A stretch of DNA of 64,000 nucleotides from a phage, in sequence record PZ179882.1; one strand, written 5' to 3'. Positions 1,452-53,751 of the stretch are shown here, piece after piece (the stretch's first letter is position 1; each line of letters begins with the position of its first letter). Under the pieces are notes generated by a model, which saw nothing but the letters and a program-made list of their open reading frames with translations, did no database searches and was not told where the DNA came from. The position numbers and the translations under genes were made by a program.

Positions 1452-2290
1452 TAGAATGCTCCTTGAAAAATATTATCACCACTAGTAGGTCTATTATACA
1501 AATACTCTATGCCACCAGGTTTAATATAGTTCCATGTCTGAAACGGATGTGTCTGATATGGATGATATGGATGATTATAAGGATTAAATCCAGGCGTTCT
1601 CCAGGTAGTATTCCAAGGAAAAGAATTGTTTTTAACCATTTTCTCAATTGCATCTTTTATAGCTTTTTCACTATCAAAACTTTCTTTATTTTCCTTTGAT
1701 GAAAAAAGCTTATTTTCTACATCATTCCATGTATAAACTCGCTGCGCAGTTTTTGGAATATTGTCACGCTCTCCTCGAGCCATCCAATAAACTGGAACAT
1801 TTAATATTTCACTCGCATGATCGCAGTGATGAGCGAGATCGTCAATATAACAAATTACGTTATATTTCTCTTTTGCCTTTTTGAACAGCTCTTCTTTTGA
1901 AGAATCATGACCACACATCATTACTTCTGAGAAGGCACCAGGAAAAAGAGCATTCAAATTAAATTGACGATTCAACAGAGCGTCAATAGAATCACCCAAT
2001 GCTGTAACAGCTACAAAATTATAATCTTCTTTTAATTTGTTAATTACACACAGGGCATCTTTATACGGAGACAAGTAACGAATAAAATCTGAACGATTGT
2101 ATTTTTCAATTAACTTGACGCCAAGTTCTTCGTCACAATTAAAGAGTTTACCAGGAGAAATAAATTTCTCATCTTGGATCATTTTTAAAATATGTTCTAA
2201 TGGAAGATTATATTTCTGAGCAAAATAAGGAAGGCCTGATTGCCAGCTTAAACATACTCCATCAATATCAGTTAAAATAGTAGGCTTCAT
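1451..2290 (-). CDS. HAD-superfamily phosphatase-like protein, 279 aa, with Pro/Tyr/His-rich C-terminal tail (30.2 slot)
   Basis: N-terminal ILTDIDGV motif (HAD motif I); C-terminal NPYNHPYHPYQTHPFQ low-complexity segment. Confidence 0.65.
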   Translation of the reverse strand: MKPTILTDIDGVCLSWQSGLPYFAQKYNLPLEHILKMIQDEKFISPGKLFNCDEELGVKLIEKYNRSDFIRYLSPYKDALCVINKLKEDYNFVAVTALGDSIDALLNRQFNLNALFPGAFSEVMMCGHDSSKEELFKKAKEKYNVICYIDDLAHHCDHASEILNVPVYWMARGERDNIPKTAQRVYTWNDVENKLFSSKENKESFDSEKAIKDAIEKMVKNNSFPWNTTWRTPGFNPYNHPYHPYQTHPFQTWNYIKPGGIEYLYNRPTSGDNIFQGAF

Positions 2291-2751
2291 AGAGAGTCTC
2301 TTAATAGGTTTAACACATCAATAAATTCAGCTTCAGTTAGTATTGTATCATCTTTTGTTAGACCACTAGCCATGCTGTGCTTCAAAACTTTTCCTTTCGA
2401 GGCTTGTAATGCATCGCGAAAGCCCCTGTTTTGGATCGCTGCTTCAAAATATGCATTTGTGTATAATTCTTTCCACGCTGGAGAGTATCTTGAAAACGGA
2501 ACTCCAAGCCAGAAGAGGGTCCCACGGTCCTGAGCTCTAGCATAAGACCTTCCAGCTTGTTGGGCGGCAAGCCCGGATAACCCAAATATACGACGTTGTT
2601 GTTCAGCATTTTTCACCTTACATCCTTGAAGGAATCCTTCGAGACCTCCAAATTGGATACCATCCATAACGAAAGGCCATTGGGCGAAATTGCTTAATGC
2701 ACATGATGGCCATCTAAAATTGCTTCTTATTTCTAGCTCAGACATTTTCAA
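2287..2751 (-). CDS. NADAR (YbiA-like) domain protein, 154 aa (30.3 slot)
   Basis: ALSNFAQWPF…DG…LEGFLQGCK resembles NADAR/DUF1768 N-terminal signature; ATGA overlap with downstream gene. Confidence 0.6.
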   Translation of the reverse strand: MKMSELEIRSNFRWPSCALSNFAQWPFVMDGIQFGGLEGFLQGCKVKNAEQQRRIFGLSGLAAQQAGRSYARAQDRGTLFWLGVPFSRYSPAWKELYTNAYFEAAIQNRGFRDALQASKGKVLKHSMASGLTKDDTILTEAEFIDVLNLLRDSL

Positions 2752-4231: not shown

Positions 4232-4312
4232 TTTATTCTCCTTTGTTTGTGTAAGATAATACTATCACAAAGGAACTATACTGTAAACAACTTTGTGCAA
4301 TCTTTGGAAAAT

Positions 4313-4340
4313 AAAAAAGGACTCCCGAAGGAGTCCTTAA
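4313..4340 (-). terminator. intrinsic terminator (GGACTCC-TTCG-GGAGTCC hairpin + T6 on minus strand)
   Basis: Perfect 7-bp GC-rich stem with UUCG loop followed by U-run, directly after stop of 4342..4518 ORF; identical copy at 57271..57298. Confidence 0.65.
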
Positions 4341-4341
4341 C

Positions 4342-4518
4342 TTATGCTTTCTGCTTACCAAAACGAGAAGCATCATCTCGAAGAACCGCACGTGCTCGGC
4401 GCATGATCTTCTCAACAGTTTGATTGATACGAGAGTTCGACCCACGCTTGTAACCAGCGCGTTTAGAATCACCAACTTTCTTTTCAACTGCTTTCTTTGC
4501 TTTAGCTTGTTTTGCCAT
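4342..4518 (-). CDS. small basic Lys/Arg-rich protein, 58 aa (30.9 slot)
   Basis: ORF from MAKQAKAKK…; Shine-Dalgarno upstream; track ORF extended to 4560 has weaker start. Confidence 0.5.
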   Translation of the reverse strand: MAKQAKAKKAVEKKVGDSKRAGYKRGSNSRINQTVEKIMRRARAVLRDDASRFGKQKA

Positions 4519-11029: not shown

Positions 11030-12617
<1,588 letters not shown>

Positions 12618-12624
12618 AATAAAA

Positions 12625-12640
12625 TGGGCCTTGCGGCCCA
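12625..12640 (-). other. GC hairpin (GGGCC-GCAA-GGCCC) between nrdB stop and denA start
   Basis: Perfect 5-6 bp stem with GNRA-type loop in the 27-nt intergenic gap. Confidence 0.4.
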
Positions 12641-12644
12641 CTCC

Positions 12645-13823
12645 TTAAAAATATTTTTTAAAACTCATCATAACTTTATCATCAACATCATTATCAATCT
12701 GTGCTACAAGGTAAGATGACAGTTCTACTTCTTGTGGCGCGGATTGAACATTATCAGAATTAAGGTATTCACGAATCCAAGGATATGGATGTTTAACCGG
12801 AGCATCGGTAATTGGGCATGGAAGACCGCACTGTTTCATACGAGATACAGTTAAGTAATCAATAAAGCTCCACATGCTATTTGTATTTAATCCAGGAACA
12901 TCGCCATCTTTAAATAAATGAACTGCCCAGTCTTTTTCTTGGCGGTTAACTTCCATGAAAATATCAACTGCTTCTTGTTCACACTCTTGAGCAATTTTAA
13001 CCCATTCATCACCGTCAGTGCCAAGTTGAAGTTGACGAATAATATATTGTGTACCTTTAAGATGAAGTTGTTCATCACGCGCAATGAACTTCATAATCTT
13101 GGCATTACCTTCCATGATTTCCATGTTCTTATGGAAGTTAAAGGTACATGCGAAAGATACATAAAAACGAATAGCTTCCAATGCATTGATTACATGGAGG
13201 CAAAGATAAAGAGATTTCATTAGTGCTCGTTTAGCTTCGGCTTCTTGTTTAATAGCTCGATTTAAACGAAAATCAGCATCAGGAGATTCTTTAGCTAGTT
13301 CTACAAATTCTTTAGCATTTTCCCATTCACGGGTCTTCTTAAGAACATCATCGTAATAGCGACCAATGGACTCAGCGCGTTTCATAATATCTTCATCTAA
13401 TACAATCTCATCAAATACCTTTGACGGATCAGTATAAAGATTTCGCATGATATGGGTATATGAACGGCTGTGAATAGTTTCACTAAAAGTCCATGTAGCA
13501 ACCCATGTATCAAGACTTGGATCTGAAATTAATGACATAAGTACTGCAGACGGTGCACGACCCTGAATGCTATCTAGAAGTGATTGATACTTCAGGTTAT
13601 TAGTAAAAATATCTTGCTGATATTGAGGAAGCTTGTTAAATTGTGCAGCATCCATCATTAAGTTTACTTCTTCAGGACGCCAGAAAAATGACAACTGCTT
13701 TTCGGTTAAATCTTCAAAAACTTTATGACGTTGAATATCGTAACGCGCAATACCAAGACCTGAACCGAAGAACATAGGTTCTTTTAAAACATCAACTGGA
13801 TTTGTATTAAAAACTGTGCTCAT
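12645..13823 (-). CDS. nrdB: ribonucleotide reductase class Ia beta subunit, 392 aa, uninterrupted
   Basis: Diiron/tyrosyl-radical R2 protein; matches T4 NrdB; single continuous ORF (no intron). Confidence 0.95.
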   Translation of the reverse strand: MSTVFNTNPVDVLKEPMFFGSGLGIARYDIQRHKVFEDLTEKQLSFFWRPEEVNLMMDAAQFNKLPQYQQDIFTNNLKYQSLLDSIQGRAPSAVLMSLISDPSLDTWVATWTFSETIHSRSYTHIMRNLYTDPSKVFDEIVLDEDIMKRAESIGRYYDDVLKKTREWENAKEFVELAKESPDADFRLNRAIKQEAEAKRALMKSLYLCLHVINALEAIRFYVSFACTFNFHKNMEIMEGNAKIMKFIARDEQLHLKGTQYIIRQLQLGTDGDEWVKIAQECEQEAVDIFMEVNRQEKDWAVHLFKDGDVPGLNTNSMWSFIDYLTVSRMKQCGLPCPITDAPVKHPYPWIREYLNSDNVQSAPQEVELSSYLVAQIDNDVDDKVMMSFKKYF

Positions 13824-13874
13824 AAATTTTCCGCTTAGTTAATAGATAGTGACTCGTCCGTGAGTCAAATTATA

Positions 13875-16139
13875 TCATAATTTACAGGATGAACAATCTT
13901 CAGCTTTTGGAGTTTCTATTTCATAATCATCAGTACCAGAACCATCGCGGGTATTATGATAATAGAAATTTTTTCCGCCAAAATACCAAAAATACAAAAG
14001 GTCATCAATCATTACAGACATTGGAACCTTTCCTTTTGGAAAAATCTGCGGGTCATAATATGTATTCGCTGAAGCTGATTGACATACCCATTTAAGCATA
14101 ATAGCTACCTGCGTAAGATAAGGTTTATTACCTTTCTTAGCTAATTTCCACGTATAATCATAGAGGTCTATGTTATGTTCAATATTGGGCACGACTTGAT
14201 TAAAGGAACCCTCTTTTGATTCTTTAACAGAGACTGGTCCACGTGGAGGCTCGATACCGTTTGTACTGTTAGAAACTTGGGAAGATGACTCACATGGCAT
14301 AAGTGCTGATAATGTGCTATTACGGATGCCAAAGAGCTTAAGGTCTTCCCGCAGCGCCGACCAGTCACAAACGTATTTTGGAGCTGCGATTTGGTCAATC
14401 TTTTTATTGTACCAGTCGATAGGTAATTCGCCTCGAGACCAACGAGTGTCTGAATAATATTCGCAAGGTCCTTTTTCTTTGGCGAGCTTAATGGATGCTT
14501 TAATGAGTCCATACTGTAATCTCTCAAATAGTTCATGTGTTAAATCGTTAGCATCTTCATAAGAAGCAAAGTTACTTGCTAGCCAAGCTGCATAGTTGGT
14601 AACACCTACGCCAAGATTACGACGCTTTTTAGCTTTTTCTGCTTCAGGAACTGGATATCCTTGGTAATCCAAAAGATTATCAAGAGCGCGAACTTGAACT
14701 TCTGCTAATTCATTAATTTTATCTTGGTCTTGCCAATCGAAGTTATCCAACACAAATGCAGATAACGTACACAATCCAATTTCAGCATCAGGACTATTCA
14801 CATCATTTGTTGGAATAGCAATTTCACAACACAAGTTACTCTGACGAATAGGTGCCTTTTCACGAATAAACGGAGTATAGTTATTCGTATTATCAATGAA
14901 CTGTACATAAATCCTTGCTGTTCCTGAGCGTTCAGTCATGAGCAATTCAAATAGTTCACGAGCTTTAATACGCTTTTTACGAATATTAGGGTCTTTTTCT
15001 GCGGCTTCGTATAATTCACGGAAACGGTCTTGGTCTTTAAAATAAGAATAATAAAGTTCGCCACCCATTTCATGCGGACTGAACAAAGTAATGTAGTCGT
15101 TCTTTCCAAAACGTTCCATCATTAGGTCATTCAGCTGGACGCCATAATCCATATGACGGATACGGTTTTCTTCTACACCTTTGTTATTTTTCAAAACGAG
15201 AAGATTTTCAACTTCCAAATGCCAAATAGGATAATAAGCAGTAGCAGCGCCGCCACGAATTCCGCCCTGTGAACATGATTTAACAGCAGTCTGAAAATGT
15301 TTCCAAAAAGGAATAACGCCAGTATGACGCACTTCACCTGTGCCAATCTTAGAACCTTCGGCACGAATCATACCAACGTTAATGCCGATTCCAGCTCGTT
15401 TAGAAATATACTCAACAATTGAAGCAGAAGCCTTATTGATAGACTTCAGCGAATCACCTGCCTCAATAACAACGCATGAACTAAATTGCCGAGTCGGAGT
15501 ACGACATCCAGCCATAATAGGAGTTGGCAATGAAATCTGTCGAGTAGATACTGCTTCATAAAAACGAATAACGTGTTTTAATCTATCAACAGTTTCATCT
15601 TGATGCAATGCCATTCCAATAGTCATAAATGCAAACTGTGGAGTTTCATAAATTTGACCAGTGGTTTTATCTTTAACGAGATATTTTTCTTTTAATTGCA
15701 TCGCCCCGGAATAAGTAAATTCCATATCCCGCTCGTGCTTAATTTTTGATTCTAAAAATGTAATTTCTTCTGCTGAATATTTTGACAACAATTCAGGGTC
15801 ATATTTACCTTCATTTACGCAGTAAGAAATATGGTCAATAAATGAACGTGGTTCATACTGCCCGTAAACATGCTTACGAAGAGCGAACATTAAACAGCGC
15901 GCAGCTACGTATTGATAATCAGGCTCTTCAACTGAAATAGAATTCGCAGCAGCCTTAATGACAATAGTCTGAATGTCATCAGTTGTCATTCCATCACGGA
16001 GATATGATTTAATATTTTCATATAATTCATAAGGATCTACAGATGTTCCTTCAGCTGCCCAAGATAAAACTTTAATAATTTTTTGCGGGTCAAAGCTCTG
16101 AGAAACACCACTACTTTTGATAACATTAATTAATTGCAT
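13875..16139 (-). CDS. nrdA: ribonucleotide reductase class Ia alpha subunit, 754 aa
   Basis: 754-aa ORF with RNR large-subunit sequence (…NLCCEIA…, C-terminal CSSCKL); matches T4 NrdA. Confidence 0.97.
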   Translation of the reverse strand: MQLINVIKSSGVSQSFDPQKIIKVLSWAAEGTSVDPYELYENIKSYLRDGMTTDDIQTIVIKAAANSISVEEPDYQYVAARCLMFALRKHVYGQYEPRSFIDHISYCVNEGKYDPELLSKYSAEEITFLESKIKHERDMEFTYSGAMQLKEKYLVKDKTTGQIYETPQFAFMTIGMALHQDETVDRLKHVIRFYEAVSTRQISLPTPIMAGCRTPTRQFSSCVVIEAGDSLKSINKASASIVEYISKRAGIGINVGMIRAEGSKIGTGEVRHTGVIPFWKHFQTAVKSCSQGGIRGGAATAYYPIWHLEVENLLVLKNNKGVEENRIRHMDYGVQLNDLMMERFGKNDYITLFSPHEMGGELYYSYFKDQDRFRELYEAAEKDPNIRKKRIKARELFELLMTERSGTARIYVQFIDNTNNYTPFIREKAPIRQSNLCCEIAIPTNDVNSPDAEIGLCTLSAFVLDNFDWQDQDKINELAEVQVRALDNLLDYQGYPVPEAEKAKKRRNLGVGVTNYAAWLASNFASYEDANDLTHELFERLQYGLIKASIKLAKEKGPCEYYSDTRWSRGELPIDWYNKKIDQIAAPKYVCDWSALREDLKLFGIRNSTLSALMPCESSSQVSNSTNGIEPPRGPVSVKESKEGSFNQVVPNIEHNIDLYDYTWKLAKKGNKPYLTQVAIMLKWVCQSASANTYYDPQIFPKGKVPMSVMIDDLLYFWYFGGKNFYYHNTRDGSGTDDYEIETPKAEDCSSCKL

Positions 16140-16696: not shown

Positions 16697-17008
16697 TTAC
16701 ACCGCCATTTTTCCTTTAATAGGAGGGTGTGATTCGTAACCTTTAAGAACGAAATCTTTAGGCCTGAGTTTAAGAACATATTCCAATTGTTCTTTAGTAG
16801 AAAGATAGCGGAATTTATAAGGCAATCCGCCTATTACCAGTTCACAAAGCTCTTTAGGTTCACGACGCAAAATTTCTTTACATTGTTCTACGTGATTCAT
16901 ATAGATATGAGTATTACCGCCAGAAAATATCAAATCTCCAGGAATAAGATTACACATCTTAGCTACGATATGAACTAACGCAGCATATGATGCAATATTA
17001 AATGGAAG
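16697..17008 (-). CDS. td: thymidylate synthase, exon 2 (C-terminal 103 aa)
   Basis: Reads LPFNIASYAALVHIV…KGKMAV*; continues exon 1 across the intron; upstream ATG at 17009-17011 belongs to intron 3' end. Confidence 0.93.
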   Translation of the reverse strand, partial: LPFNIASYAALVHIVAKMCNLIPGDLIFSGGNTHIYMNHVEQCKEILRREPKELCELVIGGLPYKFRYLSTKEQLEYVLKLRPKDFVLKGYESHPPIKGKMAV

Positions 17009-18024
17009 CATTATGTTCAGATAAGGTCGTTAATCTTATCCCGGAATTATATCCAGCTGCATGTCACCATGCAGAGCAGACTATATCTCCAACTTGTTAA
17101 AGCAAGTTGTCTATCGTTTCGAGTCACTTGACCCTACTCCCTAAAGGGATAGTCGTTAGGCATTTATGTAGAACCAATTCCACTTATCAGATTTTACACG
17201 GTAAGTAACTAATCCGGATGAAATTTCAAAATGTCTAGCTGCATCAGCTGCACATTCAAAAATAACCCCATCACATGAAATCTTTTTAATATTACTAGGC
17301 TTTTTACCTTTCATCTTTTCTGATATTTTAGATTTAGTTTTGTCTGAATGCTTATGATTAAAGAATGAATTATTTTCACCTGAACGATTTCTGCATTTAC
17401 TACAAGTATAAGCAGAAGTTTGTATACGAACACCACATTCACAAAACTTATGGGTTTCTGGATTCCAACGCCCATTTTTGCTTCCGGGTTTACCGTAAAG
17501 AGCTTTCCGACCATCAAGGCCAAGCTTAAGCATCTTAGCTTTAACAGTTTCAGAGCGTTTCTTAATAATTTCTTCTTTTAATGGATGTACAGAATATGTA
17601 TCACCAAACGTTGCATCAGCAATATTGTATCCATTAATTTTAGAATTAAGCTCTTTAATCCAAAAATTTTCTCGTTCAATAATCAAATCTTTCTCATATG
17701 GAATTTCTTCCAAAATAGAGCATTCAAACACATTACCATGTTTGTTAAAAGACCTTTGAAGTTTTATAGAAGAATGGCATCCTTTTTCTAAATCTTTAAA
17801 ATGCCTCTTCCATCTCTTTTCAAAATCTTTAGCACTTCCTACATATACTTTATCGTTTAAAGTATTTTTAATCTGATAAATTCCACTTTTCATAAATACC
17901 TCTTTAAATATAAAGGTATTTATTAAAGGGTAGTCCTACAATTTAGCACGGGATTGTCTACTAGAGAGGTTCCCCGTTTAGATAGATTACAAGTATAAGT
18001 CACCTTATACTCAGGCCTCAATTA
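17009..18024 (-). mobile_element. group I self-splicing intron in td (1016 nt) carrying homing-endonuclease gene
   Basis: Minus strand begins UAAUUGAGGCCUGAGUAUAAGGUGACUUAUACUUGUAAUCUAUCUAAACGGGGAACC… directly after exon-1 …GGU, as in T4 td intron; ends …UAAUG before exon 2. Confidence 0.93.
17156..17893 (-). CDS. I-TevI: intron-encoded GIY-YIG homing endonuclease I-TevI, 245 aa
   Basis: MKSGIYQIKNTLNDKVYVGSAKDFEKRWKRH… GIY-YIG N-terminal domain, zinc finger and C-terminal DNA-binding domain; matches I-TevI. Confidence 0.93.
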   Translation of the reverse strand: MKSGIYQIKNTLNDKVYVGSAKDFEKRWKRHFKDLEKGCHSSIKLQRSFNKHGNVFECSILEEIPYEKDLIIERENFWIKELNSKINGYNIADATFGDTYSVHPLKEEIIKKRSETVKAKMLKLGLDGRKALYGKPGSKNGRWNPETHKFCECGVRIQTSAYTCSKCRNRSGENNSFFNHKHSDKTKSKISEKMKGKKPSNIKKISCDGVIFECAADAARHFEISSGLVTYRVKSDKWNWFYINA

Positions 18025-18572
18025 ACCCAAGAAAACATCTACAGAACGTTGATACCACTGCAAATCCAAATAGCCATTACGCACATTAAACTGATAGAAC
18101 ATGTGACAAGGCGGTAATGCCATTTGCTTGAGTTCAGCTGGATTCCACGCCGACACAATTTGACGCCTATCGTTTGGAAATGTTTTAATACGATTAACAA
18201 CTTCTACAATTTGGTCTACACCGCCAAAATCACGCCATTGTTTTCCGTAAATTGGACCAAGTTCACCACTATGATAACCTAGGTCTTTGGCCTGATTTTC
18301 GTAGTTTTCATCCCAAATCGTTTTTCCAGCAATTAAAGATCCATGAGTACGTTTACGTAGATCATTTACGTTAGTACTTCCTGATAAGAACCACAATAAC
18401 TCAGAAATACACGCATTCCAGGCGAGCTTCTTAGTTGTTACTGCAGGAAAACCTTTAGTTAAATCCCAGCGTAATTTAGTACCGAACAAAGCAATTGTTC
18501 CTGTGCCTGTTCGGTCATCGGTTTCGTAGCCATTTTCTAGAATATCTTTAATTAAAAATTGGTATTGTTGCA

Positions 18573-18573
<1 letters not shown>
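18025..18573 (-). CDS. td: thymidylate synthase, exon 1 (N-terminal 183 aa)
   Basis: MQQYQFLIKDILENGYETDDRTGTGT…PPCHMFYQF…RSVDVFLG then in-frame stop at intron start; start taken at Met 5 of track ORF. Confidence 0.9.
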
Positions 18574-19366
<793 letters not shown>

Positions 19367-20734: not shown

Positions 20735-21643
20735 TTAAAGGTCATTCAAAAGGTCATCCAGGTCCGTGTCATCAGCACTAGATGAACTGCCAGAGCTTGA
20801 GCTCATAAAATCATCTTCAGTTTTTGTTTTGAAGTCATCAACATTGAATGCATCCAAATCATCAGCAACTTTATCGGCTTTCTTAGCGGCAGTTGCTGCG
20901 GCACCACCCATAGCAGCAGTTCCCATAACTTGACTGAACTTAGTGCTCAGTTCTTCAAACGATTTGAATTTATCTTTAGAAGTCATTTCAGAAAGGTCAA
21001 CCATTTGTTCGAACAGTTCTTTCTGGAAAGATTCATCATCAATGTTTGGAATCGCAGATTGATTCAGGAATTTAGATTCGTCGTAGTTACTAAAACCAGA
21101 AACTTGTTTAACTTTCAGTACAAAGTTAGCACCTTCCCACGGACAAGTTACATCAACCGGAGTTTCACCCATTTCAACATCAACTGCAATCATTGCATTG
21201 ATTTTATCCCAGATTTTCTTACCGAAACGGTATTTAAATACTTTACCTTCATTTTCTGGAGCAGCTGGGTCTTTTACTACAAGAATGTTAGCCCAGTAAG
21301 AAGTTTTACGTTTAACAAGACCATACTCTTTATTGTCAGTGTTGTACAAATCATTTTTACTGATGTACTGACATACTGGACAAGAATCGTAATCACCGTA
21401 GGTAGATGAGCATGTTTCAATATACCATTTACCATTTTTCTTGAAACCGTGATTTACAAGAAGTGCGAATGGTGCTTGTTCATCATTTTTAGACGGAAGA
21501 AAACGAATTACTGCTTGACCGTTACCCGCATTATCGAGTTTCAGTTTCCACTCGCCTTTATCTTCAGAAGAAAAACCACCTTTATTTCCAGCCAGTTTAG
21601 CCATTTGTGCAGCGAGTTCAGCAGTAGATTTACGTTTAAACAT
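20735..21643 (-). CDS. 32: single-stranded DNA-binding protein gp32, 302 aa
   Basis: [19 protein letters not shown]…, zinc-binding Cys/His, acidic Ser/Asp C-tail; matches T4 gp32. Confidence 0.97.
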
Positions 21644-21717
21644 TTTTATTTCCTTTTTAATTTAATTAACAGTTGGTGCTATGACGATGTATGACCTCAT
21701 AGCTGGTCAGTGAGATA

Positions 21718-21741
21718 ATTATAATCTATTTATAATAAGCA
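21718..21741 (-). promoter_or_regulatory. gene 32 middle promoter (MotA box TGCTTA, 12 nt, TATAAT) overlapping late-promoter TATAAATA
   Basis: Minus strand …aatTGCTTAttataaatagatTATAATtat…; TATAAATA at 21734..21727. Confidence 0.5.
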
Positions 21742-21742
21742 A

Positions 21743-22396
21743 TTAATACTTGCATGATTTCACAGTTTCAATGAAAACACTTTTAGCTTTCTGTGAATCA
21801 ATATTTAAAATTTTTCTATAAGCTTTTAACTTTATAGAATAATTATTCCAGACTAAATTATCAGTCTGTTCATCATGTTTATCAATTATATTTAAAAACG
21901 AATCAAGCAAGATAAACGTCTCAAACGAAATTATATTCGATTGAAGTAGTTTAAAAATATAACTTGATTGAACTTTTGGATTATACTCAAAGATTTCTTT
22001 AAAAGCAGAAACTTCAACTTTTTTACTAAAATAATAAATGTTGCGAATATCTTCTTCAAACTTAAATTTAATTTGCTTTAAGCGTCCGATATATTCACGA
22101 TAAAACACAAGTGCATCAGCATCAGAGATGTCACCAATCCAAGCATCCTGGTTAGCAACAAGATTGCTTATAAAGATTAAAGCAAGTTCCTTTAATTTAT
22201 ATTTTTCTGATAACTTCTGGAAAAAATACTTATCCCTTCGCTTTTGATAAGCGGCATCAGACACCCGCATGCACCAATTATACTTAATTACATCATACTT
22301 TCCATTCATATGTTGTTTTATCATTAAGTATAATTTATAAACTGATTTACCATCAATGTATCTTTCACCACCAGCAGGCATGCGGAGTTTAATCAT
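21743..22396 (-). CDS. 59: helicase loader gp59, 217 aa
   Basis: MIKLRMPAGGERYIDGKSVYKLYLMIKQH… matches T4 gp59. Confidence 0.95.
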   Translation of the reverse strand: MIKLRMPAGGERYIDGKSVYKLYLMIKQHMNGKYDVIKYNWCMRVSDAAYQKRRDKYFFQKLSEKYKLKELALIFISNLVANQDAWIGDISDADALVFYREYIGRLKQIKFKFEEDIRNIYYFSKKVEVSAFKEIFEYNPKVQSSYIFKLLQSNIISFETFILLDSFLNIIDKHDEQTDNLVWNNYSIKLKAYRKILNIDSQKAKSVFIETVKSCKY

Positions 22397-24008: not shown

Positions 24009-27000
24009 ATGGCCGAGATTAAAAGAAAGTTCAGAGCAGAAGATGGTCTGGACGCAGGTGGCGATAAAATAATCAACGTAGCTTTAGCTGATCGTACCGT
24101 AGGAACTGACGGTGTCAACGTTGATTACTTAATTCAAGAAAACACAGTTCAACAATATGATCCAACTCGTGGATATTTAAAAGATTTTGTAATCATTTAT
24201 AATAATCGTTTTTGGGCAGCAACGGATAATATTCCAAAACCTGCTGGAAGTTTTAATAGAATTCGTTGGAAAGCATTACGTACTGATGCCGTATATACAA
24301 CCGTATCATCTGGACCATATCAATTAAAATCCGGAGAAGCAATTTCAGTAGATACATCAGTTGGTAATGACATTGAGTTTAATTTACCACCTTCTCCGCT
24401 TGATGGAGAGACCGTAATAATTCAAGATATTGGTGGAAAACCTGGTATAAATCAGGTTAAAATAAATTCTTCAAATCAGAGTATTGTTAATTTTAGAGGT
24501 GAACAGGTACGTTCAGTTCTAATGACTCATCCAAAGTCACAAATGATATTCATTTTTAATAATCGTTTGTGGCAAATGTATGTTGCTGATTATAGCAGAG
24601 AAGCTGCGATTGTTACTCCATCGACTGCATATCAAGCACAATCTAATGATTTTATTGTGCGTAGATTTACTTCCGCTGCGCCGATTAATATTAAACTTCC
24701 GAGATTTGCTAATCATGGCGATATTATTAATTTCGTTGATTTAGATAAATTAAATCCACTTTATCATACAATTGTCACGACATATGATGAAACAACTTCA
24801 GTACAAGAAGTTGGAACTCATTCTATTGAAGGCCGTACATCGATTGACGGTTTCTTGATGTTTGATGATAATGAAAAATTATGGAGATTGTTTGACGGGG
24901 ATAGTAAAGCACGTTTACGCATTATAACAACTAATTCTAATATTCGTCCAAATGAAGAAGTTATGGTATTTGGTGCGAATAACGGAACAGCCCAAACAAT
25001 TGAACTTCAACTTCCAACCGATATTTCCATTGGTGATACTGTTAAAATTTCCATGAATTACATGAGAAAAGGACAAACAGTTAAAATCAAAGCTGCCGGT
25101 GAAGATAAAATTGCTTCTTCAGTTCAATTGCTGCAATTCCCAAAACGTTCAGAATATCCACCTGAAGCTGAATGGGTGACTGTTCAAGAATTAGTTTTTA
25201 ACGGCGAAACCAATTATGTTCCAGTTTTACAACTTGCTTATATAGAAGATTCTGACGGAAAATACTGGGTTGTACAACAAAACGTTCCAACGGTTGAAAG
25301 AGTCGATTCTTTAAATAATTCTACTAGAGCAAGATTAGGCGTAATTGCTTTAGCTACACAAGCTCAAGCTAACGTCGATTTAGAAAATTCTCCACAAAAA
25401 GAATTAGCAATTACACCAGAAACATTAGCTAACCGTACTGCTACAGAAACTCGTAGAGGTATCGCAAGAATAGCAACTACTGCTCAAGTGAATCAGAACA
25501 CCACATTCTCTTTTGCTGATGACCTTATCATCACTCCTAAAAAGCTGAATGAAAGAACTGCTACAGAAACTCGTAGAGGTGTCGCTGAAATTGCTACGCA
25601 GCAAGAAACTAATACAGGTACTGATGATACTACAATCATCACTCCTAAAAAGCTTCAAGCTCGTCAAGGTTCTGAATCATTATCTGGTATTGTAACCTTT
25701 GTATCTACTGCAGGAGCTACTCCAGCTTCTAGTCGTGAATTAAATGGTACAAATGTTTATAATAAAAACACTAATAATTTAGTTGTTTCGCCTAAAGCTT
25801 TGGATCAGTATAAAGCTACTCCAACGCAACAAGGTGCAGTAATTTTAGCAGTTGAAAGTGAAGTAATTGCTGGACAAAGCCAAGAAGGATGGGCAAATGC
25901 GGTTGTAACGCCAGAAACGTTACATAAAAAGACATCAACTGATGCAAGAATTGGTTTAATTGAAATTGCTACACAAAGTGAAGTTAATACAGGAACTGAT
26001 TATACTCGTGCAGTCACTCCGAAAACTTTAAATGACCGTAGAGCAACTGAAAGTTTAAGTGGTATAGCTGAAATTGCTACGCAAGTTGAATTCGACGCAG
26101 GCGTCGACGATACTCGTATCTCTACACCATTAAAAATTAAAACCAGATTTAATAGTACTGATCGTACTTCTGTTGTTGCTCTATCTGGATTAGTTGAATC
26201 AGGAACTCTCTGGGACCATTATACCCTTAATATTCTTGAAGCAAATGAGACACAGCGTGGTACACTTCGTGTAGCTACACAAGTTGAAGCTGCTGCAGGA
26301 ACATTGGATAATGTTCTAATAACTCCTAAAAAGCTTTTAGGTACTAAATCTACTGAAGCACAGGAAGGCGTTATTAAAGTTGCAACTCGGTCTGAAACTG
26401 TAGCTGGAACGTCAGCAAATACTGCTGTATCCCCAAAAAATTTAAAATGGATTGTGCAGAGTGAACCAACTTGGGCAGCTACTACCCTGGTAAGAGGTTT
26501 TGTTAAAACTTCATCTGGTTCAATTACATTCGTTGGTAATGATACAGTTGGTTCTACGCAGGACTTAGAACTATATGAGAAAAATAACTATGCAGTATCA
26601 CCATATGAATTAAACCGCGTATTAGCAAATTATTTGCCGTTAAAAGCAAAAGCTGTAGATAGTAATTTATTAGATGGTTTAGATTCACTCCAGTTCATTC
26701 GTAGGGATATTGCGCAGACGGTTAATGGTTCACTAACCTTAACACAGCAAACGAATCTGAGTGCCCCTCTTGTATCATCTAGTACTGCTACATTTGGTGG
26801 ATCAGTTTCAGCAAATAGTACATTAACTATTTCTAATACTGGAACGGCAACTCGTCTGATTTTTGAGAAAGGACCTCAAACTGGAACAAACCCGGCTCAA
26901 ACGATGACAGTCAGAGTGTGGGGAAATCAATTTAGTGGGGAGTCAGACACAACACGTTCTACTGTATTTGAAGTTAGTGATGAAACTTCTAGTCATTTTT

Positions 27001-27878
27001 ATTCTCAGCGTAATAAAGCTGGTAATATAACATTTAATATCAACGGTACAGTAACACCGATAAATGTGAATGCTTCAGGAACATTGAATGCGAATGGCGT
27101 TGCAACATTTGGTAATTCAGTCACTGCAACTGGTGAAATTATTTCTCGAAGCGCAAATGCTTTCCGTGCTATTAATGGAAATTACGGTTTCATTATTCGT
27201 AATGACGGGTCAGTAACGAATTTTATGCTTACTGCATCAGGCAATCAAACTGGTGGATTTAATGGATTGCGTCCATTGTCCATTAATAATCAATCTGGGC
27301 AGGTCACAATTGGTGAAAGCTTGATCATTGCTAAAGGTGCTACTATAAATTCAGGTGGTTTAACTGTTAACTCGAGAATTCGTTCTCAAGGTGTTAAAAC
27401 ATCTGATTTATATACCCGTGCGCCGACATCTGATACTGTAGGATTCTGGTCAATCGATATTAATGATTCAGCCACTTATAACCAGTTCCCGGGTTATTTT
27501 AAAATGGTTGAAAAAACTAATGAAGTTACTGGACTTCCATACTTAGAACGTGGCGAAGAAGTTAAATCTCCTGGTACATTGACTCAGTTTGGTAACACAC
27601 TTGATTCACTTTACCAAGATTGGATTACTTATCCAACGACTCCAGAAGCACGTACCACTCGCTGGACACGTACATGGCAAAAAACTAAAAACTCTTGGTC
27701 AAGTTTTGTTCAGGTATTTGACGGAGGTAACCCTCCTCAACCTTCAGATATAGGAGCGATCCCATCTGATAATGGAATAATAGGTAATCTTACTATTCGT
27801 GATTTCTTACGAATTGGTAATGTTCGCATTATTCCTGACCCAGTGAATAAAACTGTTAAATTTGAATGGGTTGAATAA
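24009..27878 (+). CDS. 34: long tail fiber proximal subunit gp34, 1289 aa
   Basis: 1289-aa plus-strand ORF; internal repeats (…TETRRGxAxIATxxExNxGTDxTxxITPKKL…); matches T4 gp34 length and sequence. Confidence 0.95.
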   Translation: MAEIKRKFRAEDGLDAGGDKIINVALADRTVGTDGVNVDYLIQENTVQQYDPTRGYLKDFVIIYNNRFWAATDNIPKPAGSFNRIRWKALRTDAVYTTVSSGPYQLKSGEAISVDTSVGNDIEFNLPPSPLDGETVIIQDIGGKPGINQVKINSSNQSIVNFRGEQVRSVLMTHPKSQMIFIFNNRLWQMYVADYSREAAIVTPSTAYQAQSNDFIVRRFTSAAPINIKLPRFANHGDIINFVDLDKLNPLYHTIVTTYDETTSVQEVGTHSIEGRTSIDGFLMFDDNEKLWRLFDGDSKARLRIITTNSNIRPNEEVMVFGANNGTAQTIELQLPTDISIGDTVKISMNYMRKGQTVKIKAAGEDKIASSVQLLQFPKRSEYPPEAEWVTVQELVFNGETNYVPVLQLAYIEDSDGKYWVVQQNVPTVERVDSLNNSTRARLGVIALATQAQANVDLENSPQKELAITPETLANRTATETRRGIARIATTAQVNQNTTFSFADDLIITPKKLNERTATETRRGVAEIATQQETNTGTDDTTIITPKKLQARQGSESLSGIVTFVSTAGATPASSRELNGTNVYNKNTNNLVVSPKALDQYKATPTQQGAVILAVESEVIAGQSQEGWANAVVTPETLHKKTSTDARIGLIEIATQSEVNTGTDYTRAVTPKTLNDRRATESLSGIAEIATQVEFDAGVDDTRISTPLKIKTRFNSTDRTSVVALSGLVESGTLWDHYTLNILEANETQRGTLRVATQVEAAAGTLDNVLITPKKLLGTKSTEAQEGVIKVATRSETVAGTSANTAVSPKNLKWIVQSEPTWAATTLVRGFVKTSSGSITFVGNDTVGSTQDLELYEKNNYAVSPYELNRVLANYLPLKAKAVDSNLLDGLDSLQFIRRDIAQTVNGSLTLTQQTNLSAPLVSSSTATFGGSVSANSTLTISNTGTATRLIFEKGPQTGTNPAQTMTVRVWGNQFSGESDTTRSTVFEVSDETSSHFYSQRNKAGNITFNINGTVTPINVNASGTLNANGVATFGNSVTATGEIISRSANAFRAINGNYGFIIRNDGSVTNFMLTASGNQTGGFNGLRPLSINNQSGQVTIGESLIIAKGATINSGGLTVNSRIRSQGVKTSDLYTRAPTSDTVGFWSIDINDSATYNQFPGYFKMVEKTNEVTGLPYLERGEEVKSPGTLTQFGNTLDSLYQDWITYPTTPEARTTRWTRTWQKTKNSWSSFVQVFDGGNPPQPSDIGAIPSDNGIIGNLTIRDFLRIGNVRIIPDPVNKTVKFEWVE

Positions 27879-27886
27879 GAGGTATT

Positions 27887-29002
27887 ATGGAAAAATTTAT
27901 GGCAGAGTTTGGACAAGGATATGTCCAAACGCCATTTTTATCGGAAAGCAATTCAGTAAGATATAAAATAAGCATAGCGGGCTCTTGCCCGCTTTCTACT
28001 GCAGGGCCATATGTTAAATTTCAGGATAATCCCGTTGGAAATCAAACATTTAGTGCAGGTCTTCATTTAAGAGTTTTTGACCCTTCTACGGGAGCATTAG
28101 TTGATAGTAAGTCATATGCTTTTTCTGCTTCAAACAATACAACATCTGCCGCTTTTGTCAGTTTTATGAATTCTTTGTCAAACAATAGACTTGTTGCTAT
28201 ATTAACTAGCGGAAAGGTTAATTTTCCTCCTGAAGTGGTATCTTGGTTAAGGGGAGCAGGAACTTCAGTTTTTCCATCAGATTCAGTATTGTCAAGATTT
28301 GACGTATCATATGCTGCTTTTTATACTTCTTCTAAAAGAGCTATTGCATTAGAGCATGTTAAACTAAGTAATAGAAAAAGCACAGATGATTATCAAACTA
28401 TTTTAGATGTTGTATTTGATAGTTTAGAAGACGTCGGAGCTACGGGATTTCCTAAAAGAACATATGAAAGTGTCGAGCAATTTATGTCAGCGGTTGGTGG
28501 AACTAACAACGAAATTGCGCGATTGCCAACTTCAGCTGCTATAAGTAAACTATCTGATTATAATTTAATTCCTGGTGATGTTCTTTATCTTAAAGCACAG
28601 TTATATGCTGATGCTGATTTACTTGATCTTGGAACTACAAATATATCTATCCGTTTTTATAATGCATCAAATGGATATATTTCTTCAACACAGGCTGAGT
28701 TTACTGGGCAAGCTGGATCTTGGGAATTAAAGGAAGATTATGTAGTTGTTCCTGAAAATGCAGTCGGATTTACTATATATGCGCAGAGAACTGCTCAAGC
28801 TGGTCAAGGCGGAATGAGGAATTTAAGCTTTTCTGAAGTATCAAGAAATGGCGGCATTTCAAAACCTGCCGAATTTGGCGTCAACGGTATTCGTGTTAAT
28901 TATGTCTGTGAATCGGCTTCACCTCCAGATATAATGGTACTTCCTACACAAGCCTCTTCTAAAACTGGCAAAGTGTTTGGGCAAGAATTTAGAGAAGTTT
29001 AA
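27887..29002 (+). CDS. 35: long tail fiber hinge connector gp35, 371 aa
   Basis: Follows gene 34 by 8 nt; size matches T4 gp35. Confidence 0.9.
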   Translation: MEKFMAEFGQGYVQTPFLSESNSVRYKISIAGSCPLSTAGPYVKFQDNPVGNQTFSAGLHLRVFDPSTGALVDSKSYAFSASNNTTSAAFVSFMNSLSNNRLVAILTSGKVNFPPEVVSWLRGAGTSVFPSDSVLSRFDVSYAAFYTSSKRAIALEHVKLSNRKSTDDYQTILDVVFDSLEDVGATGFPKRTYESVEQFMSAVGGTNNEIARLPTSAAISKLSDYNLIPGDVLYLKAQLYADADLLDLGTTNISIRFYNASNGYISSTQAEFTGQAGSWELKEDYVVVPENAVGFTIYAQRTAQAGQGGMRNLSFSEVSRNGGISKPAEFGVNGIRVNYVCESASPPDIMVLPTQASSKTGKVFGQEFREV

Positions 29003-29007
29003 ACTGA

Positions 29008-29030
29008 GGGAGCCTTCGGGTTCCCTTTTT
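29008..29030 (+). terminator. intrinsic terminator after gene 35
   Basis: GGGAGCC-TTCG-GGTTCCC hairpin followed by TTTTT on plus strand. Confidence 0.6.
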
Positions 29031-29033
29031 CTT

Positions 29034-29041
29034 TATAAATA
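29034..29041 (+). promoter_or_regulatory. late promoter TATAAATA upstream of gene 36
   Basis: Exact TATAAATA 24 nt upstream of gene 36 ATG. Confidence 0.55.
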
Positions 29042-29064
29042 ATATTAAAATAAAGGGGCATATA

Positions 29065-29715
29065 ATGGCTGATTTAAAAGTAGGTTCAACTGTGGGTGGA
29101 TCTGTCATTTGGCATCAAGGAAATTTTCCATTGAATTCAGCCGGTGACGATGTACTCTACAAATCATTTAAAATATATTCAGAATATAATAAACCACAGG
29201 CAGCTGATAACGATTTCGTTTCTAAAGCTAATGGTGGTACTTACACCGGTCCAATTACTATTAATTACGGGGTAAATAGTTATCTTCAATTAAGTAATAA
29301 TGAAACCCCCATTCGAATTCGTTCTGGTGGCGGTACCGGCAATACTCTTGTAGTTGGCGGCTCTTCTGGCGGTATTAGTTTTAGACCTGCAGGTAGTGAA
29401 ATCACTACTGGACAAATTACTATTACGCCAGAAGGTTTGACAACATTTACCAGGGCTGTAACGGCTCCATCTGTAACTGTTACATCTACTCCTTCAGCAG
29501 CATCTGATGTTACTCGTAAAGATTATGTCGATGGAGCAATAAATACTGTTACGGCAAATGCGAATTCTAGAGTTTTGCGTAAAGGTGACACCATGACAGG
29601 TAATTTAACAGCGCCAAACTTTTTCTCGCAGAATCCTGCATCTCAACCCTCGCATGTTCCACGATTTGACCAAATCGTAATTAAGGATTCTGTTCAAGAT
29701 TTCGGCTATTATTAA
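29065..29715 (+). CDS. 36: long tail fiber distal connector gp36, 216 aa
   Basis: Position and size match T4 gp36. Confidence 0.9.
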
Positions 29716-29723
29716 GAGGACTT

Positions 29724-32700
29724 ATGGCTACTTTAAAACAAATACAATTTAAAAGAAGCAAAACCGCAGGTCAACTTCCTGCTGCTTCAGTATTAGCCGA
29801 AGGTGAATTGGCTATTAATTTAAAAGATAAAACAATTTTCACAAAAGATGACTCAGGCAATGTTATAGAATTAGGTTTAAAATATGGAGGAACAATTGAT
29901 GGTTCTTTAACTGTTAATGGAAATATAATTGGAAATTTAACAGGTAACGCTGCAACTGCAACGAAATTAAAAACAGCACGAAAAATTAATGGTATATCAT
30001 TTGATGGGTCAAAAGATATCACGCTAACTCCATCTGACATAAATGTCAATAGCACAACGTTTATAAAAAATAACGGCGAATTACCGGTTGATGCTAATTT
30101 AGATGAGTATGGGCCTGTTGAAGAATATCTTGGGGTTTGGTCGAAATCTACTTCAACAAATGCGCAACCGGCAAATAAATTCCCAGAAGAAAATGCCGTA
30201 GGTGTACTAGAAGTATTTGTGGCCGGTCAATTTGCTGGTACTCAGAGATATACTGTAAGATCTGGTAACGTATATGTTCGATCTTTGTCTGCTAAATGGA
30301 ACGGTGTTAACGGTCCGTGGGGAGTTTGGCGTAATGTTCAAGCGTCAACTCGTCCACTTTCACAAACGATTGACCTTGATAGTTTGGGAGAATTAGAACA
30401 TTGCGGCTTATGGCGAAATAGTTCAAGTGCTATTGCATCGTTTGATCGCCATTATCCAGAAGAAGGATCAGCCGCACAAGGATTTTTAGAAATATTTGAA
30501 GGTGGTTTATACGCGAGAACTCAGCGTTATACAACTAGATCTGGTGTTGTTTATACTCGCTGTCTTGCTGCTGCATGGGATGCATCTGCGCCTAAATGGG
30601 GACCGTGGCAACAAGTCGGTAATGTCACACCAGCGACTTTCTATGACGGAAACCTGAATGATTTTAAAACTCCTGGGTTATATAATATTTTAGGCACTGA
30701 TGCCGTTATTAATTGTCCTACAGGCGAAGGTTTACCAGCCGTTATTGTTGGTTTGCTGGAAGTTAAACAGCGTGCTTCTGGTGGTGCTATTTTCCAAAAA
30801 TTTACTACTGCCGGAACGGGAACTACTACCCGTGGTCGTATTTTTGAGCGTGCATATACTGGTGGTGCGTGGGGTACATGGAACGAAGTATATACATCTT
30901 ACTCTCTGCCAATTACTTTGGGTATGGGCGAGCGTGCAATTGAACTTACTTCTATGGATTGGCAACAACAAGAATTTCTTTCTGGTGGGATCTATAGCGT
31001 CGGTGCTAAGGATATGACAAACACGCCAAGTGGGATGACCTTTGCTGATGTTGCTGTTTATATCTCCGTTATTGGTCGTTCTGGTAGTGCTTTAGAATTA
31101 AGCGTAATACCACGCACGTCAAATGATAAAAACTATCATTGTTATAATGTTAGGAGTACTGGTGCTAAAGGATCTCGAACGTTTTATGTAAGGAAGTTTG
31201 CAACCACGTCTACCCAACACACATGGACAGCACAGCAAGATTTTAATGGCGCAGTTAACTTCGGTGCTCCTACCAATTTTAACTCTACTGTTAACCTTAA
31301 TAACACTACCACTTTTAAAACAGAAGTTAAATTTCGCTCATCTAATGCATTCCGTATGTATGGCAGAAAATTTGGTACAATTTTCCGTAATGATGGAGAG
31401 AGTCTTTATATTCTTTCTACCGACGAAGATGACCAAGATGGAAACTTTAATACAAATAGACCTTTCCGTTATGAATTAAGAACTGGCGATGTTACTTTAG
31501 GTGGTGCTAGTGGTGCTAACGTTTTAAAATTAGAACGTAGTTCGCTTGCTGCCACCTTTGGTGGTGATGTTAACTTAAATAAAGGTACACTGACGTTTGA
31601 AGCTGGTCGCTTAAACTCCCGCGATTATTTTAAATTTAACCATTGGGGTGATAGTAATAATGCTCGTGATAACATCATCCAGTTAGAAGATAGTCAAGGC
31701 GCCCATTTTTCCACTGAACGTACTTTAGCGACAGGTGCAATTAAAACTCGTTTCTTTGGCGAAACATTCACTGATGGTACATTATACCTAAATCAGATGA
31801 ATAATAGCTCTGAACGATTCTCTATTAATAATTGGGGAAATTCAGAAGTTGGTCGCGCGGCAGTGATGGAAGTCAGTGATTCCAAAGGTTATCACTTCCA
31901 TACGGAACGCAGGACAGATAACAGTTTGAATTTTGATGTTGCTGGCAATTTTACTGCGCATGGACCTTCCGGAATAACCATCAAAAACTCAACTGGTGCA
32001 CGACATATCTGGTTTAGAGATGATAGCGATGCAGAAAAGGCTGTTATCTGGGCTACAGATGAGGGTATTTTACATATTCGCAATAATCATGGGGGTTCAT
32101 TTAGTCATCACTTCCAGGGTGCAATGATTAAAGCGGGAGAGCGTGTTCCATATAATGGTGAATACGCTCTTATCCGTGGTGATATTTCAGGTGGTGCATG
32201 GGTAGACTGGCGAGAGCGTCCGGCTGGATTGTTGGTAGACTGTCAGGACTCACGAAATCAAGCATATAACATTTGGAAAGCTACTCATTGGGGCGAACAG
32301 CACCTTGCGGCGATGGGTGTTCATGCTGACGGTGGTAATCCTCGTGTTGTATTGCATGTGGGTGGGAATGATTATGCATTTGCATTTAACGGTGATTTTA
32401 CTGCTGGTGCTGCTGTATATTGTAACGACGTTTATATTCGTTCTGACCGTCGTCTGAAAATTAATGTTGAAGACTACGAAGAGAATGCGGTGGATAAGGT
32501 AAATAAACTCAAAGTTAAAACCTATGATAAAGTTAAATCTCTTTCTGACCGCGAAGTTATCGGCCATGAGATTGGTATTATCGCACAGGATTTGCAAGAA
32601 GTATTACCGGAAGCTGTTAGCACTTCTAGTGTCGGATCTCAGGATAACCCAGAAGAAATTTTAACAATTTCAAACTCTGCTGTGAACGCGCTTTTAATTA

Positions 32701-32795
32701 AGGCCATTCAGGAAATGAGCGAAGAAATTAAAGAATTGAAAACGCCTCTCTTTACTAAAATTGCTCGCAAAATTAGTAAATATTTTAAATTCTAA
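29724..32795 (+). CDS. 37: long tail fiber distal subunit gp37, 1023 aa, with C-terminal self-cleaving intramolecular chaperone domain
   Basis: Large fibre protein; C-terminal 117 aa from [13 protein letters not shown]…[16 protein letters not shown] resemble Peptidase_S74 chaperone domain. Confidence 0.93.
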
Positions 32796-32831: not shown

Positions 32832-33614
32832 ATGGCAGTAGTTGGAGTTCCTGGCTGGATTGGAAGTTCAGCCGTAAATGAAACGGGCCAGCGCTGGATG
32901 AGTCAAGCGGCTGGTCAATTAAGATTAGGTGTTCCTTGCTGGATGAGTCAATTTGCAGGTCGCTCAAGAGAAATTATTCATACACTTGGAGCAGATCATA
33001 ACTTCAATGGTCAATGGTTCCGAGATAGGTGTTTTGAGGCAGGTAGTACACCTATAGTGTTTAATATCACTGGAGATTTAGTATCATATTCTAAAGATGT
33101 TCCTTTATTCTTCATGTACGGAGATACACCGAATGAATATGTTCAACTGAATATACATGGTGTAACGATGTATGGCCGTGGCGGGAATGGCGGTAGCAAT
33201 AGTCCTGGCTCAGCTGGGGGTCATTGTATTCAAAATGATATTGGTGGGAGACTAAGAATTAATAATGGCGGAGCTATTGCTGGCGGTGGCGGTGGCGGTG
33301 GCGGCGGATATTATTCTCCTTTTTCACAAATGAGATTGACCTTTGGCGGTGGCGGCGGTCGTCCGTTTGGCGCTCCGGGCGGATCTATTGATATGCAATC
33401 AGGAGCAACTGCTGGTACTATTTCTGCGCCTGGCGCAGGGTCTGTGAACGGTATCTACAACGGCGGGTCTGGTGGTGAAGTTGGCTCCGCAGGAGGTAGA
33501 TGTAATATTCGTGGTCAAGGATATGAATACGATGGCGGAGCTGCTGGTTATGCCGTCATAGGGTCTACACCGACATGGCAAAACGTTGGAGCAATATATG
33601 GTCCAAGAGTATAA
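32832..33614 (+). CDS. 38: gp38 receptor-recognising adhesin of the T2 type (glycine-rich motifs), 260 aa
   Basis: Multiple poly-Gly motifs ([24 protein letters not shown]) separating short variable segments; unlike the 183-aa T4 gp38 chaperone. Confidence 0.88.
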
Positions 33615-45334: not shown

Positions 45335-45364
45335 ATTATACCACATCCTTGTGGTAAAGTAAAC
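45335..45364 (-). promoter_or_regulatory. T4-type early promoter (-35 GTTTAC, 18 nt, TGGTATAAT)
   Basis: Minus strand GTTTACtttaccacaaggatgTGGTATAAT upstream of rIIA.1/rIIA; -35 overlaps gene 39 stop. Confidence 0.55.
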
Positions 45365-47181: not shown

Positions 47182-47208
47182 CACTTATCCTCGTTTGGTT
47201 TCGGGAAT

Positions 47209-53004: not shown

Positions 53005-53751
53005 TTATCCTCGGATAAGTTTAAAAATTGAACAATTTAGCGGGTATCCTCTTTTCAGTTTAAGTTTATCAATAAAAGACAAGTTTTGATACCGCTCTAC
53101 ACCTTGAATAATTTTATCACACATATCATATTGCATTTCTGCTTCTGACAACTTTTTCACGGTTTTCCAATCTGAGCCTTTAAGAAGAACGTTCAATTTA
53201 ACAACTTCAGCGCCTTCTGCTATACGAGAACCATCAATACGAGCTTTAAGTGCTATAATCGTTAGCTTAACGTCAGAAGTTTGTTTTGATTTAGAAAGCT
53301 GAGAAATATGCTCAATTCGGTTTTCACGTTTTTTCTGTATAGCTTTAATTTGATTAAAAGTCTTTTTGATTTTAGCCCATTTCTTTTCATCTAAATTTAG
53401 TTTATGAACTTTTTTCGCAGATGAACGACCAATTCGCAAAGCAAATAAATCACGCTTTTCAATCAACTCTTCTAAAGTATAATCAGAACGAAATGTATTA
53501 TACTTTTTCTTTACTGCAATAACATTCCCTTTAATGTATCCAACGTTATTGTCAAAACGTTCTAATGATAATTTCTCTCCTTCAATACGATTATCAAAAG
53601 GTTCTCCTGAGTAAGCGCAAACTTTCTGATCTAAAATGTTCTTAATGTAATTGAAGTCTAAGTTAAAATCTTTAGAACGTCTTTTAGCTGATGCCTGAGT
53701 GTGCTCTAAACGACGTGTAATTTTACGAATTTGATTTTTAGACAGTTTCAT
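53005..53751 (-). CDS. srd: Srd-like basic protein, 248 aa
   Basis: Lys/Arg-rich 248-aa ORF in the srd slot between dda.1 and modA. Confidence 0.55.
   Translation of the reverse strand: MKLSKNQIRKITRRLEHTQASAKRRSKDFNLDFNYIKNILDQKVCAYSGEPFDNRIEGEKLSLERFDNNVGYIKGNVIAVKKKYNTFRSDYTLEELIEKRDLFALRIGRSSAKKVHKLNLDEKKWAKIKKTFNQIKAIQKKRENRIEHISQLSKSKQTSDVKLTIIALKARIDGSRIAEGAEVVKLNVLLKGSDWKTVKKLSEAEMQYDMCDKIIQGVERYQNLSFIDKLKLKRGYPLNCSIFKLIRG

Follow-up and report, generated by a model that had tools for sequence, protein, structure and literature searches.

The td intron with its endonuclease I-TevI is the founding example of self-splicing introns in bacteria and their phages and of intron homing. The self-splicing of the T4 td intron has been studied experimentally (reviewed in PMC2988022), and in the T4T genome annotation td appears as a two-piece join with a 1016-nt intron that holds I-TevI. 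Here we analysed a stretch of phage DNA of 64,000 nucleotides from sequence record PZ179882.1 (hereafter, the window), whose 25-kb blocks find their best megablast matches, at 95-97%, in T4-like phages (Tequatrovirus). With a probability that we put at about 95%, the element that interrupts td in this DNA is a functional allele of the T4 td group I (IA2) intron with I-TevI, residing in the td gene of a T4-like phage. Such an element is already known and is among the best-studied mobile introns. The window shares with T4 the host gene, the insertion site, the intron length of 1016 nt, the lengths of both exons (549 and 312 nt) and the placement of the open reading frame in the P6a loop, as well as a hairpin that sequesters the Shine-Dalgarno sequence of this frame, an operator-like sequence and a CAACG motif. 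The two introns differ by 32 substitutions in 1016 positions without a single insertion or deletion (96.85% identity); 27 of these are in the open reading frame and the other five are found in the L6a region (one), the Shine-Dalgarno hairpin (two), the L7.1 loop (one) and P9.2 (one), the last being a G.U to A-U change that preserves pairing. The neighbours of td, namely frd, nrdA.2, nrdA.1, nrdA and nrdB, follow the T4 gene order. In T4, frd and td overlap, whereas in the window an open reading frame of 68 aa (18573..18779, minus strand; phrog_9550, function unassigned in PHROG) is found between them, with a stop codon that overlaps the start of td in TAATG. At this spot, directly upstream of td, a CDS of 207 nt is present in each of the phages PD112, PYps55T and sutha.

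All features of td, the intron and I-TevI are on the minus strand of the window. Exon 1 of td (18025..18573; 549 nt, 183 codons) starts with the ATG at 18573..18571 and ends with ...GTT TTC TTG GGT, its last base being 18025. The group I intron (17009..18024, 1016 nt) starts with U at 18024, where it reads UAAUUGAGGCCUGAGUAUAAGG (in a longer reading, UAAUUGAGGCCUGAGUAUAAGGUGACUUAUACUU), and its 3' end reads ...ACAUAAUG (in a longer reading, ...CUGAACAUAAUG), so that the final ...AUAAUG places the terminal G of a group I intron at 17009. Exon 2 (16697..17008; 312 nt including the stop codon) opens from 17008 with CTT CCA TTT AAT, CTT being the codon of Leu184. According to both the list of open reading frames and the sequence itself, the frame of exon 1 is closed in frame by UAA, the first three nucleotides of the intron. 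A sequence-only reading of this DNA had placed a td intron with I-TevI at 17009-18024 and had exon 2 begin with CTT (Leu); these boundaries proved exact to the base, giving 1016 nt, and the identity of the element is upheld by its 96.9% identity to the T4 intron, the T4 geometry, the recognition of ORF-less orthologues by a covariance model (67-74 bits), covariation and the solved domains of I-TevI.

An insertion that splits a gene in this manner could also be a dead one, which leaves td as two separate genes and involves no RNA splicing, and many GenBank records of related phages do annotate two 'thymidylate synthase' CDSs. Neither exon alone, however, encodes a complete thymidylate synthase fold: the Pfam Thymidylat_synt profile is matched by exon 1 at positions 3-175 and by exon 2 at positions 176-266, and it runs unbroken across the 175|176 split. 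The spliced product has 286 aa, and its residues 1-286 align without gaps to residues 1-286 of PDB 1TIS (E 5e-185), the crystal structure of T4 thymidylate synthase. Because the profile is continuous at this point and the alignment is gapless, ligation of the exons restores an intact td. The exons are, moreover, under purifying selection (dN/dS 0.10), which also argues against a gene that was broken in two.

The other observation that would suit a dead insertion is the outcome of an Rfam scan of the whole window, which returned no group I intron match at the gathering score and none at E of 1 or below. In a local scan, the alignment of the window intron to RF00028 (Intron_gpI) was confined to the 3' half and reached 34.4 bits (E 9.5e-7), the gathering score being 50. 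The ORF-less td introns of related phages, on the other hand, pass with 73.8, 72.7 and 66.9 bits in alignments that span model positions 1-253, and their cores are nearly base-identical to the segments of the window core that flank the open reading frame. The score of the window copy is below the threshold because the 738-nt open reading frame splits the core; the local score and the passing orthologues led us to reject the Rfam miss as a proof that the intron is absent. When a custom model (R1) of the contiguous 3' half of the core (P7 to P9), made from seven td introns and the T4 nrdB intron, was run with filters off, it recognized a group I catalytic core at 17055-17164 with 138.7 bits. The sequence-only reading had proposed a covariance-model search as a check and would have counted a failure to place P1-P9 against the intron. 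In this check, plain Rfam is negative on the ORF-bearing copy of the window and positive on the ORF-less orthologues, and the rule, applied naively, would have produced a false negative.

The RNA pairing expected of a group I ribozyme is present in full on both sides of the open reading frame. The 5' half (17933..18028) comprises P1, P2, the 5' strand of P3, P4, P5 and the 5' strands of P6 and P6a; every pair in its helix map is standard, and it is 100% identical to T4. The 3' half (17020..17174) contributes the 3' strands of P6a and P6, then P7, P7.1, P7.2, the 3' strand of P3, P8, P9, P9.1 and P9.2. P1 is made by exon GGGU (18028-18025) pairing with GCCU (18016-18013), which leaves a U.G pair at the 5' splice site, and this U(-1).G is invariant in 8/8 td intron sequences. 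P7 (17154-17150 with 17083-17079) forms a pseudoknot with P3, whose 3' strand is at 17115-17110. The minimum free energy fold of the ORF-deleted window intron contains P1, P2, P3, P4, P5, P6/P6a, P7.1, P7.2, P8, P9, P9.1 and P9.2; the P7 pseudoknot, which RNAfold cannot draw, and P10 were then added manually and checked, and a spurious 4-bp hairpin proposed by RNAfold was rejected. Over P1-P10 of the window intron, 80/80 pairs are standard. In a small alignment of eight related td introns, including copies that are 79% and 91% identical, 99.0% of the cells are paired compared to 32-44% in slid controls, in which the 3' partners were shifted by 1-3 columns; the structure under test came from a member of the alignment, so that the paired percentage is inflated while the compensatory counts are unaffected. 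Five pairs changed on both sides, compared to none in every slid control: a U-A to C-G change in P7.2, an A-U to U-A change in P8, two changes in P9.2 and one in P10. P3, P4, P5 and P7 are invariant across the eight introns and are uninformative for covariation. With the full pairing of the ribozyme preserved, compensatory changes included, and with the ORF-less orthologues passing Rfam, a dead insertion without RNA splicing is extremely improbable.

The I-TevI open reading frame (17893..17156; 738 nt) is located in the loop closed by P6a, and the 3' strands of both P6a and P6 come from its last codons. In the T4 literature, this arrangement is linked to the need for ribosomes to be kept away from the core of the intron (PMC2988022). 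The GIY-YIG endonuclease of 245 aa that had been read inside the intron is indeed encoded there, as evidenced by a match to PF01541 of 64.9 bits. This is one of four Pfam domains, all well over threshold, the others being the I-TevI zinc finger (PF22635, 71.9 bits), NUMOD3 and the DNA-binding domain (PF20987, 110.4 bits). Residues 1-97 match the solved catalytic domain (1MK0/1LN0) and residues 130-245 match the solved DNA-binding domain (1I3J/1T2T). The protein is 96.3% identical to T4 I-TevI and differs from it by nine substitutions, among them C100Y/T102V in the linker and K152E, which is flanked by two of the zinc-binding cysteines.

These nine substitutions, with K152E being within the zinc finger, can be read as signs that the intron still splices but that its endonuclease is inactive or decaying, as is T4 I-TevIII, so that the element is no longer mobile. 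That relatives have td introns without the frame means that such a loss does occur. Against this, the frame is of full length, the four domains are all recognized, and the catalytic and zinc-binding residues are all kept: G4/I5/Y6, Y17/V18/G19, R27, E75 and N90 are intact, and so are the cysteines C151, C153, C164 and C167. The dN/dS of the gene is 0.135 when compared to T4 and 0.132 when compared to phage sutha, and therefore I-TevI is under purifying selection. The hairpin that would regulate its translation has also been kept, by changes that preserve its pairs. We consider the loss of endonuclease activity highly improbable and the functional allele the much better reading of the open reading frame.

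The linker sets the cleavage distance of I-TevI. The substitutions in I-TevI, taken together with the exon 2 side of the junction, which reads CTTCCA in the window and CTACCG in T4, might conceivably make up a co-adapted pair of nuclease and target with altered cleavage preference or spacing, which we regard as very unlikely. If such a pair did exist, it would be a natural specificity variant of the nuclease domain used in genome-editing fusions.

The features outside the coding sequence of I-TevI suggest the same mode of regulation and movement as in T4. The CAACG sequence at 18047..18051 (minus strand), a predicted CNNNG cleavage motif of I-TevI, is located in exon 1 at -27..-23 from the insertion site, which is its position in T4, and the reconstituted exon junction, i.e., the homing site TATCAACGTTCTGTAGATGTTTTCTTGGGTCTTCCATTTAATATTGCATC, is identical to the T4 homing site at 50/55 positions. 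I-TevI was shown to cut 23/25 nt upstream of the insertion site (PMC2988022), and judging by its sequence, an intron-less td junction with this CAACG should be an I-TevI target. A hairpin at 17892..17923 (minimum free energy -13.4 kcal/mol, z -4.9) covers the Shine-Dalgarno sequence of I-TevI (GAGG, 17902..17899) and its start codon; the corresponding T4 hairpin folds with -13.0 kcal/mol. The two hairpins differ at intron nucleotides 110 and 112, and pairing is kept at both, one change being U.G to C-G and the other C-G to U.G. Upstream of I-TevI, an operator-like and late-promoter-like region occupies 17917..17941 and has kept the element TAATAAATA at 17925..17917; the operator-like sequence is identical to the window's own homing site at 14/20 positions, an equal count being found in T4. 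In T4, these elements have roles in late transcription, autorepression and translational masking (PMC2988022), and by analogy the hairpin and the operator with the late promoter would play the same roles in the window.

The divergence from T4 is distributed unevenly over the locus. The synonymous divergence (dS) is 0.128 in the I-TevI frame and 0.499 in the td exons, i.e., about fourfold lower in the frame, and the intron is 96.9% identical to T4 compared to 88.4% for the flanking exons. Within exon 1, identity to T4 is highest next to the insertion site, with 0.96 over the nearest 100 nt, and it is lower farther away (0.58-0.98 per 50-nt bin). A co-conversion bias toward exon I was described for I-TevI (PMC2988022), and the pattern would be the expected one for a mobile element with co-conversion. 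The lower synonymous divergence of the intron than of the exons is a clean sign of horizontal spread, though an expected one and not new.

Close relatives of this intron are numerous. About 200 Tequatrovirus records have a full-length td intron with the open reading frame at 96-98.5% identity, the intron of phage LH2 (OQ378934) being 98.5% identical to that of the window, and about 199 phage records cover at least 80% of the window intron. In megablast, the best match to the whole td region in the phage collection is at about 96%, and therefore the combination of exons and intron in the window is an unsampled mosaic. The ORF-less td introns of PD112, HMD-9 and PYps55T are inserted at the same site and have a near-identical core, that of PD112 differing from the window core at two natural positions, but they are devoid of I-TevI and are only 254-320 nt long. 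More distant are the T4 nrdB intron with I-TevIII and the nrdD introns of phages, which have a homologous 3' catalytic core (95.6 bits by R1, 72.5% identity by blastn), although they reside in other host genes, carry endonucleases of other families (I-TevIII is an HNH enzyme) and are absent from the window. Parts of the core also occur elsewhere. A 74-nt segment (intron nucleotides 938-1011, 17087..17014) has a 93% match inside the DNA polymerase gene of phage 4HA13, and 42 nt of the 5' core (intron nucleotides 43-84, 17982..17941) have 100% matches at unannotated sites in other Tequatroviruses; both are probably other group I introns or variants of the td intron that share core modules. In the nrdD intron of phage PNJ-9 (Mosigvirus; locus L008), the core match is at 1557..1673 and an annotated homing endonuclease frame is at 1720..2490, so that the frame starts downstream of the P7-P9 core, whereas in td it is upstream of the core, in P6a.

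The sequence-only reading had further held that td carries the only intron of the window, that nrdB is intron-less and that I-TevI is the only intron-borne homing endonuclease, and all three statements stood within the reach of our searches. The nrdB gene (12645..13823, minus strand) is a single open reading frame of 392 aa with one Pfam Ribonuc_red_sm match, and the T4 nrdB region aligns to it as two abutting pieces from which the roughly 600-nt intron of T4 is precisely missing. Compared to T4, nrdB is itself a mosaic, being 83.5% identical upstream of the T4 intron insertion site and 96.6% identical downstream of it. In the 64-kb window, R1 found no second intron core, the td intron scoring 138.7 bits and the next match 13.1 bits (E 0.14). 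The same model gave 95.0 bits to the DNA polymerase intron of Yepe2, 89.1 to a Felixounavirus nrdD intron, 82.2 to a phiKZ-like thymidylate synthase intron and 68.1 to a Mosigvirus nrdD intron, these four control introns being outside its training set. Rfam, which would detect an ORF-less group I intron, found none in the window at the gathering score. Thus, td contains the only intron of the window as far as R1, Rfam and the nrdB alignment can tell, very divergent intron classes being outside their reach. At 4303..4386 (minus strand), Rfam matches the Rhizobiales sRNA Atu_C8 below threshold, with 32.5 bits (E 0.012) where the gathering score is 50, most likely by chance.

To look for other homing endonucleases, all open reading frames of at least 140 aa that are not nested antisense in a larger gene were surveyed by Pfam or PHROGs, with the exception of the tail-fibre frames at 24009..32795 and of some large genes whose names are based on size and T4 gene order only; ModA and ModB, the two frames at 53868..55090, lack a Pfam match and were likewise named by size and T4 position. 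No other homing endonuclease was found among the surveyed frames, and tblastn of T4 SegG, MobE and I-TevIII against the window returned noise only. Of the free-standing homing endonuclease genes of T4, neither mobE, which lies between nrdA and nrdB, nor segG, which lies between genes 32 and 59, is present in the window, the gaps at their sites (13823..13875 and 21643..21743) being only about 50 and 100 nt. I-TevI is thus the only homing endonuclease, intron-borne or free-standing, found in the 64 kb by the Pfam/PHROGs survey and tblastn, families outside the libraries being beyond their reach.

Three candidates for an interrupted gene or a homing endonuclease were considered and rejected. The 244-aa frame at 63229..63963, which comprises only the C-terminal domain of uvsX, could have been part of an interrupted gene, but it is open to the window edge, where the gene is cut. 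The product of 53005..53751 has weak secondary PHROG matches to HNH endonucleases, yet it is matched far better by the Srd anti-sigma factor. The denA gene (12207..12641) has a GIY-YIG domain and corresponds to T4 endonuclease II by its size and its adjacency to nrdB; T4 endonuclease II is neither intron-borne nor a homing enzyme. Two further genes were noted along the way. A 606-aa frame at 45364..47184 (minus strand) combines a GyrB-type ATPase domain and a TOPRIM_C domain in a single piece, so that the large topoisomerase subunit (gene 39) appears unsplit in the window, unlike in T4, where the arrangement is 39, mobA, 60 (in part after Table 1 of PMC2988022). The gp38 gene (32832..33614, plus strand) encodes a 260-aa adhesin with the Pfam domains GP38 (PF05268) and Gp38_N.

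By analogy with T4, the splicing, the timing of expression, the cleavage and the homing of this element may be pictured as follows. The early td transcript would fold into a P1-P9.2 ribozyme, in which exogenous guanosine would attack the 5' splice site marked by the U.G pair, and the terminal G of the intron would then dock and the exons would be ligated, giving the mRNA for the 286-aa thymidylate synthase. Translation of unspliced RNA would end at the UAA with which the intron begins. In early transcripts, the hairpin would mask the ribosome-binding site of I-TevI, whereas late transcripts, starting inside the intron, would lack the 5' arm of the hairpin and could be translated; I-TevI would also repress its own late promoter. 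When an intron-less relative infects the same cell, I-TevI would bind across the exon junction of that relative and cut it 23/25 nt upstream at CAACG, and repair from the intron-bearing genome would copy the intron together with nearby exon sequence into the recipient.

Since about 200 phage records hold a near-identical copy of this element, its presence in the window has little significance beyond correct annotation. A practical lesson is that group I introns that bear open reading frames are missed by a standard Rfam scan, which is fixed by scanning with the contiguous 3' catalytic half. For the phage itself, td is to be annotated as a single joined CDS and not as two 'thymidylate synthase' genes.
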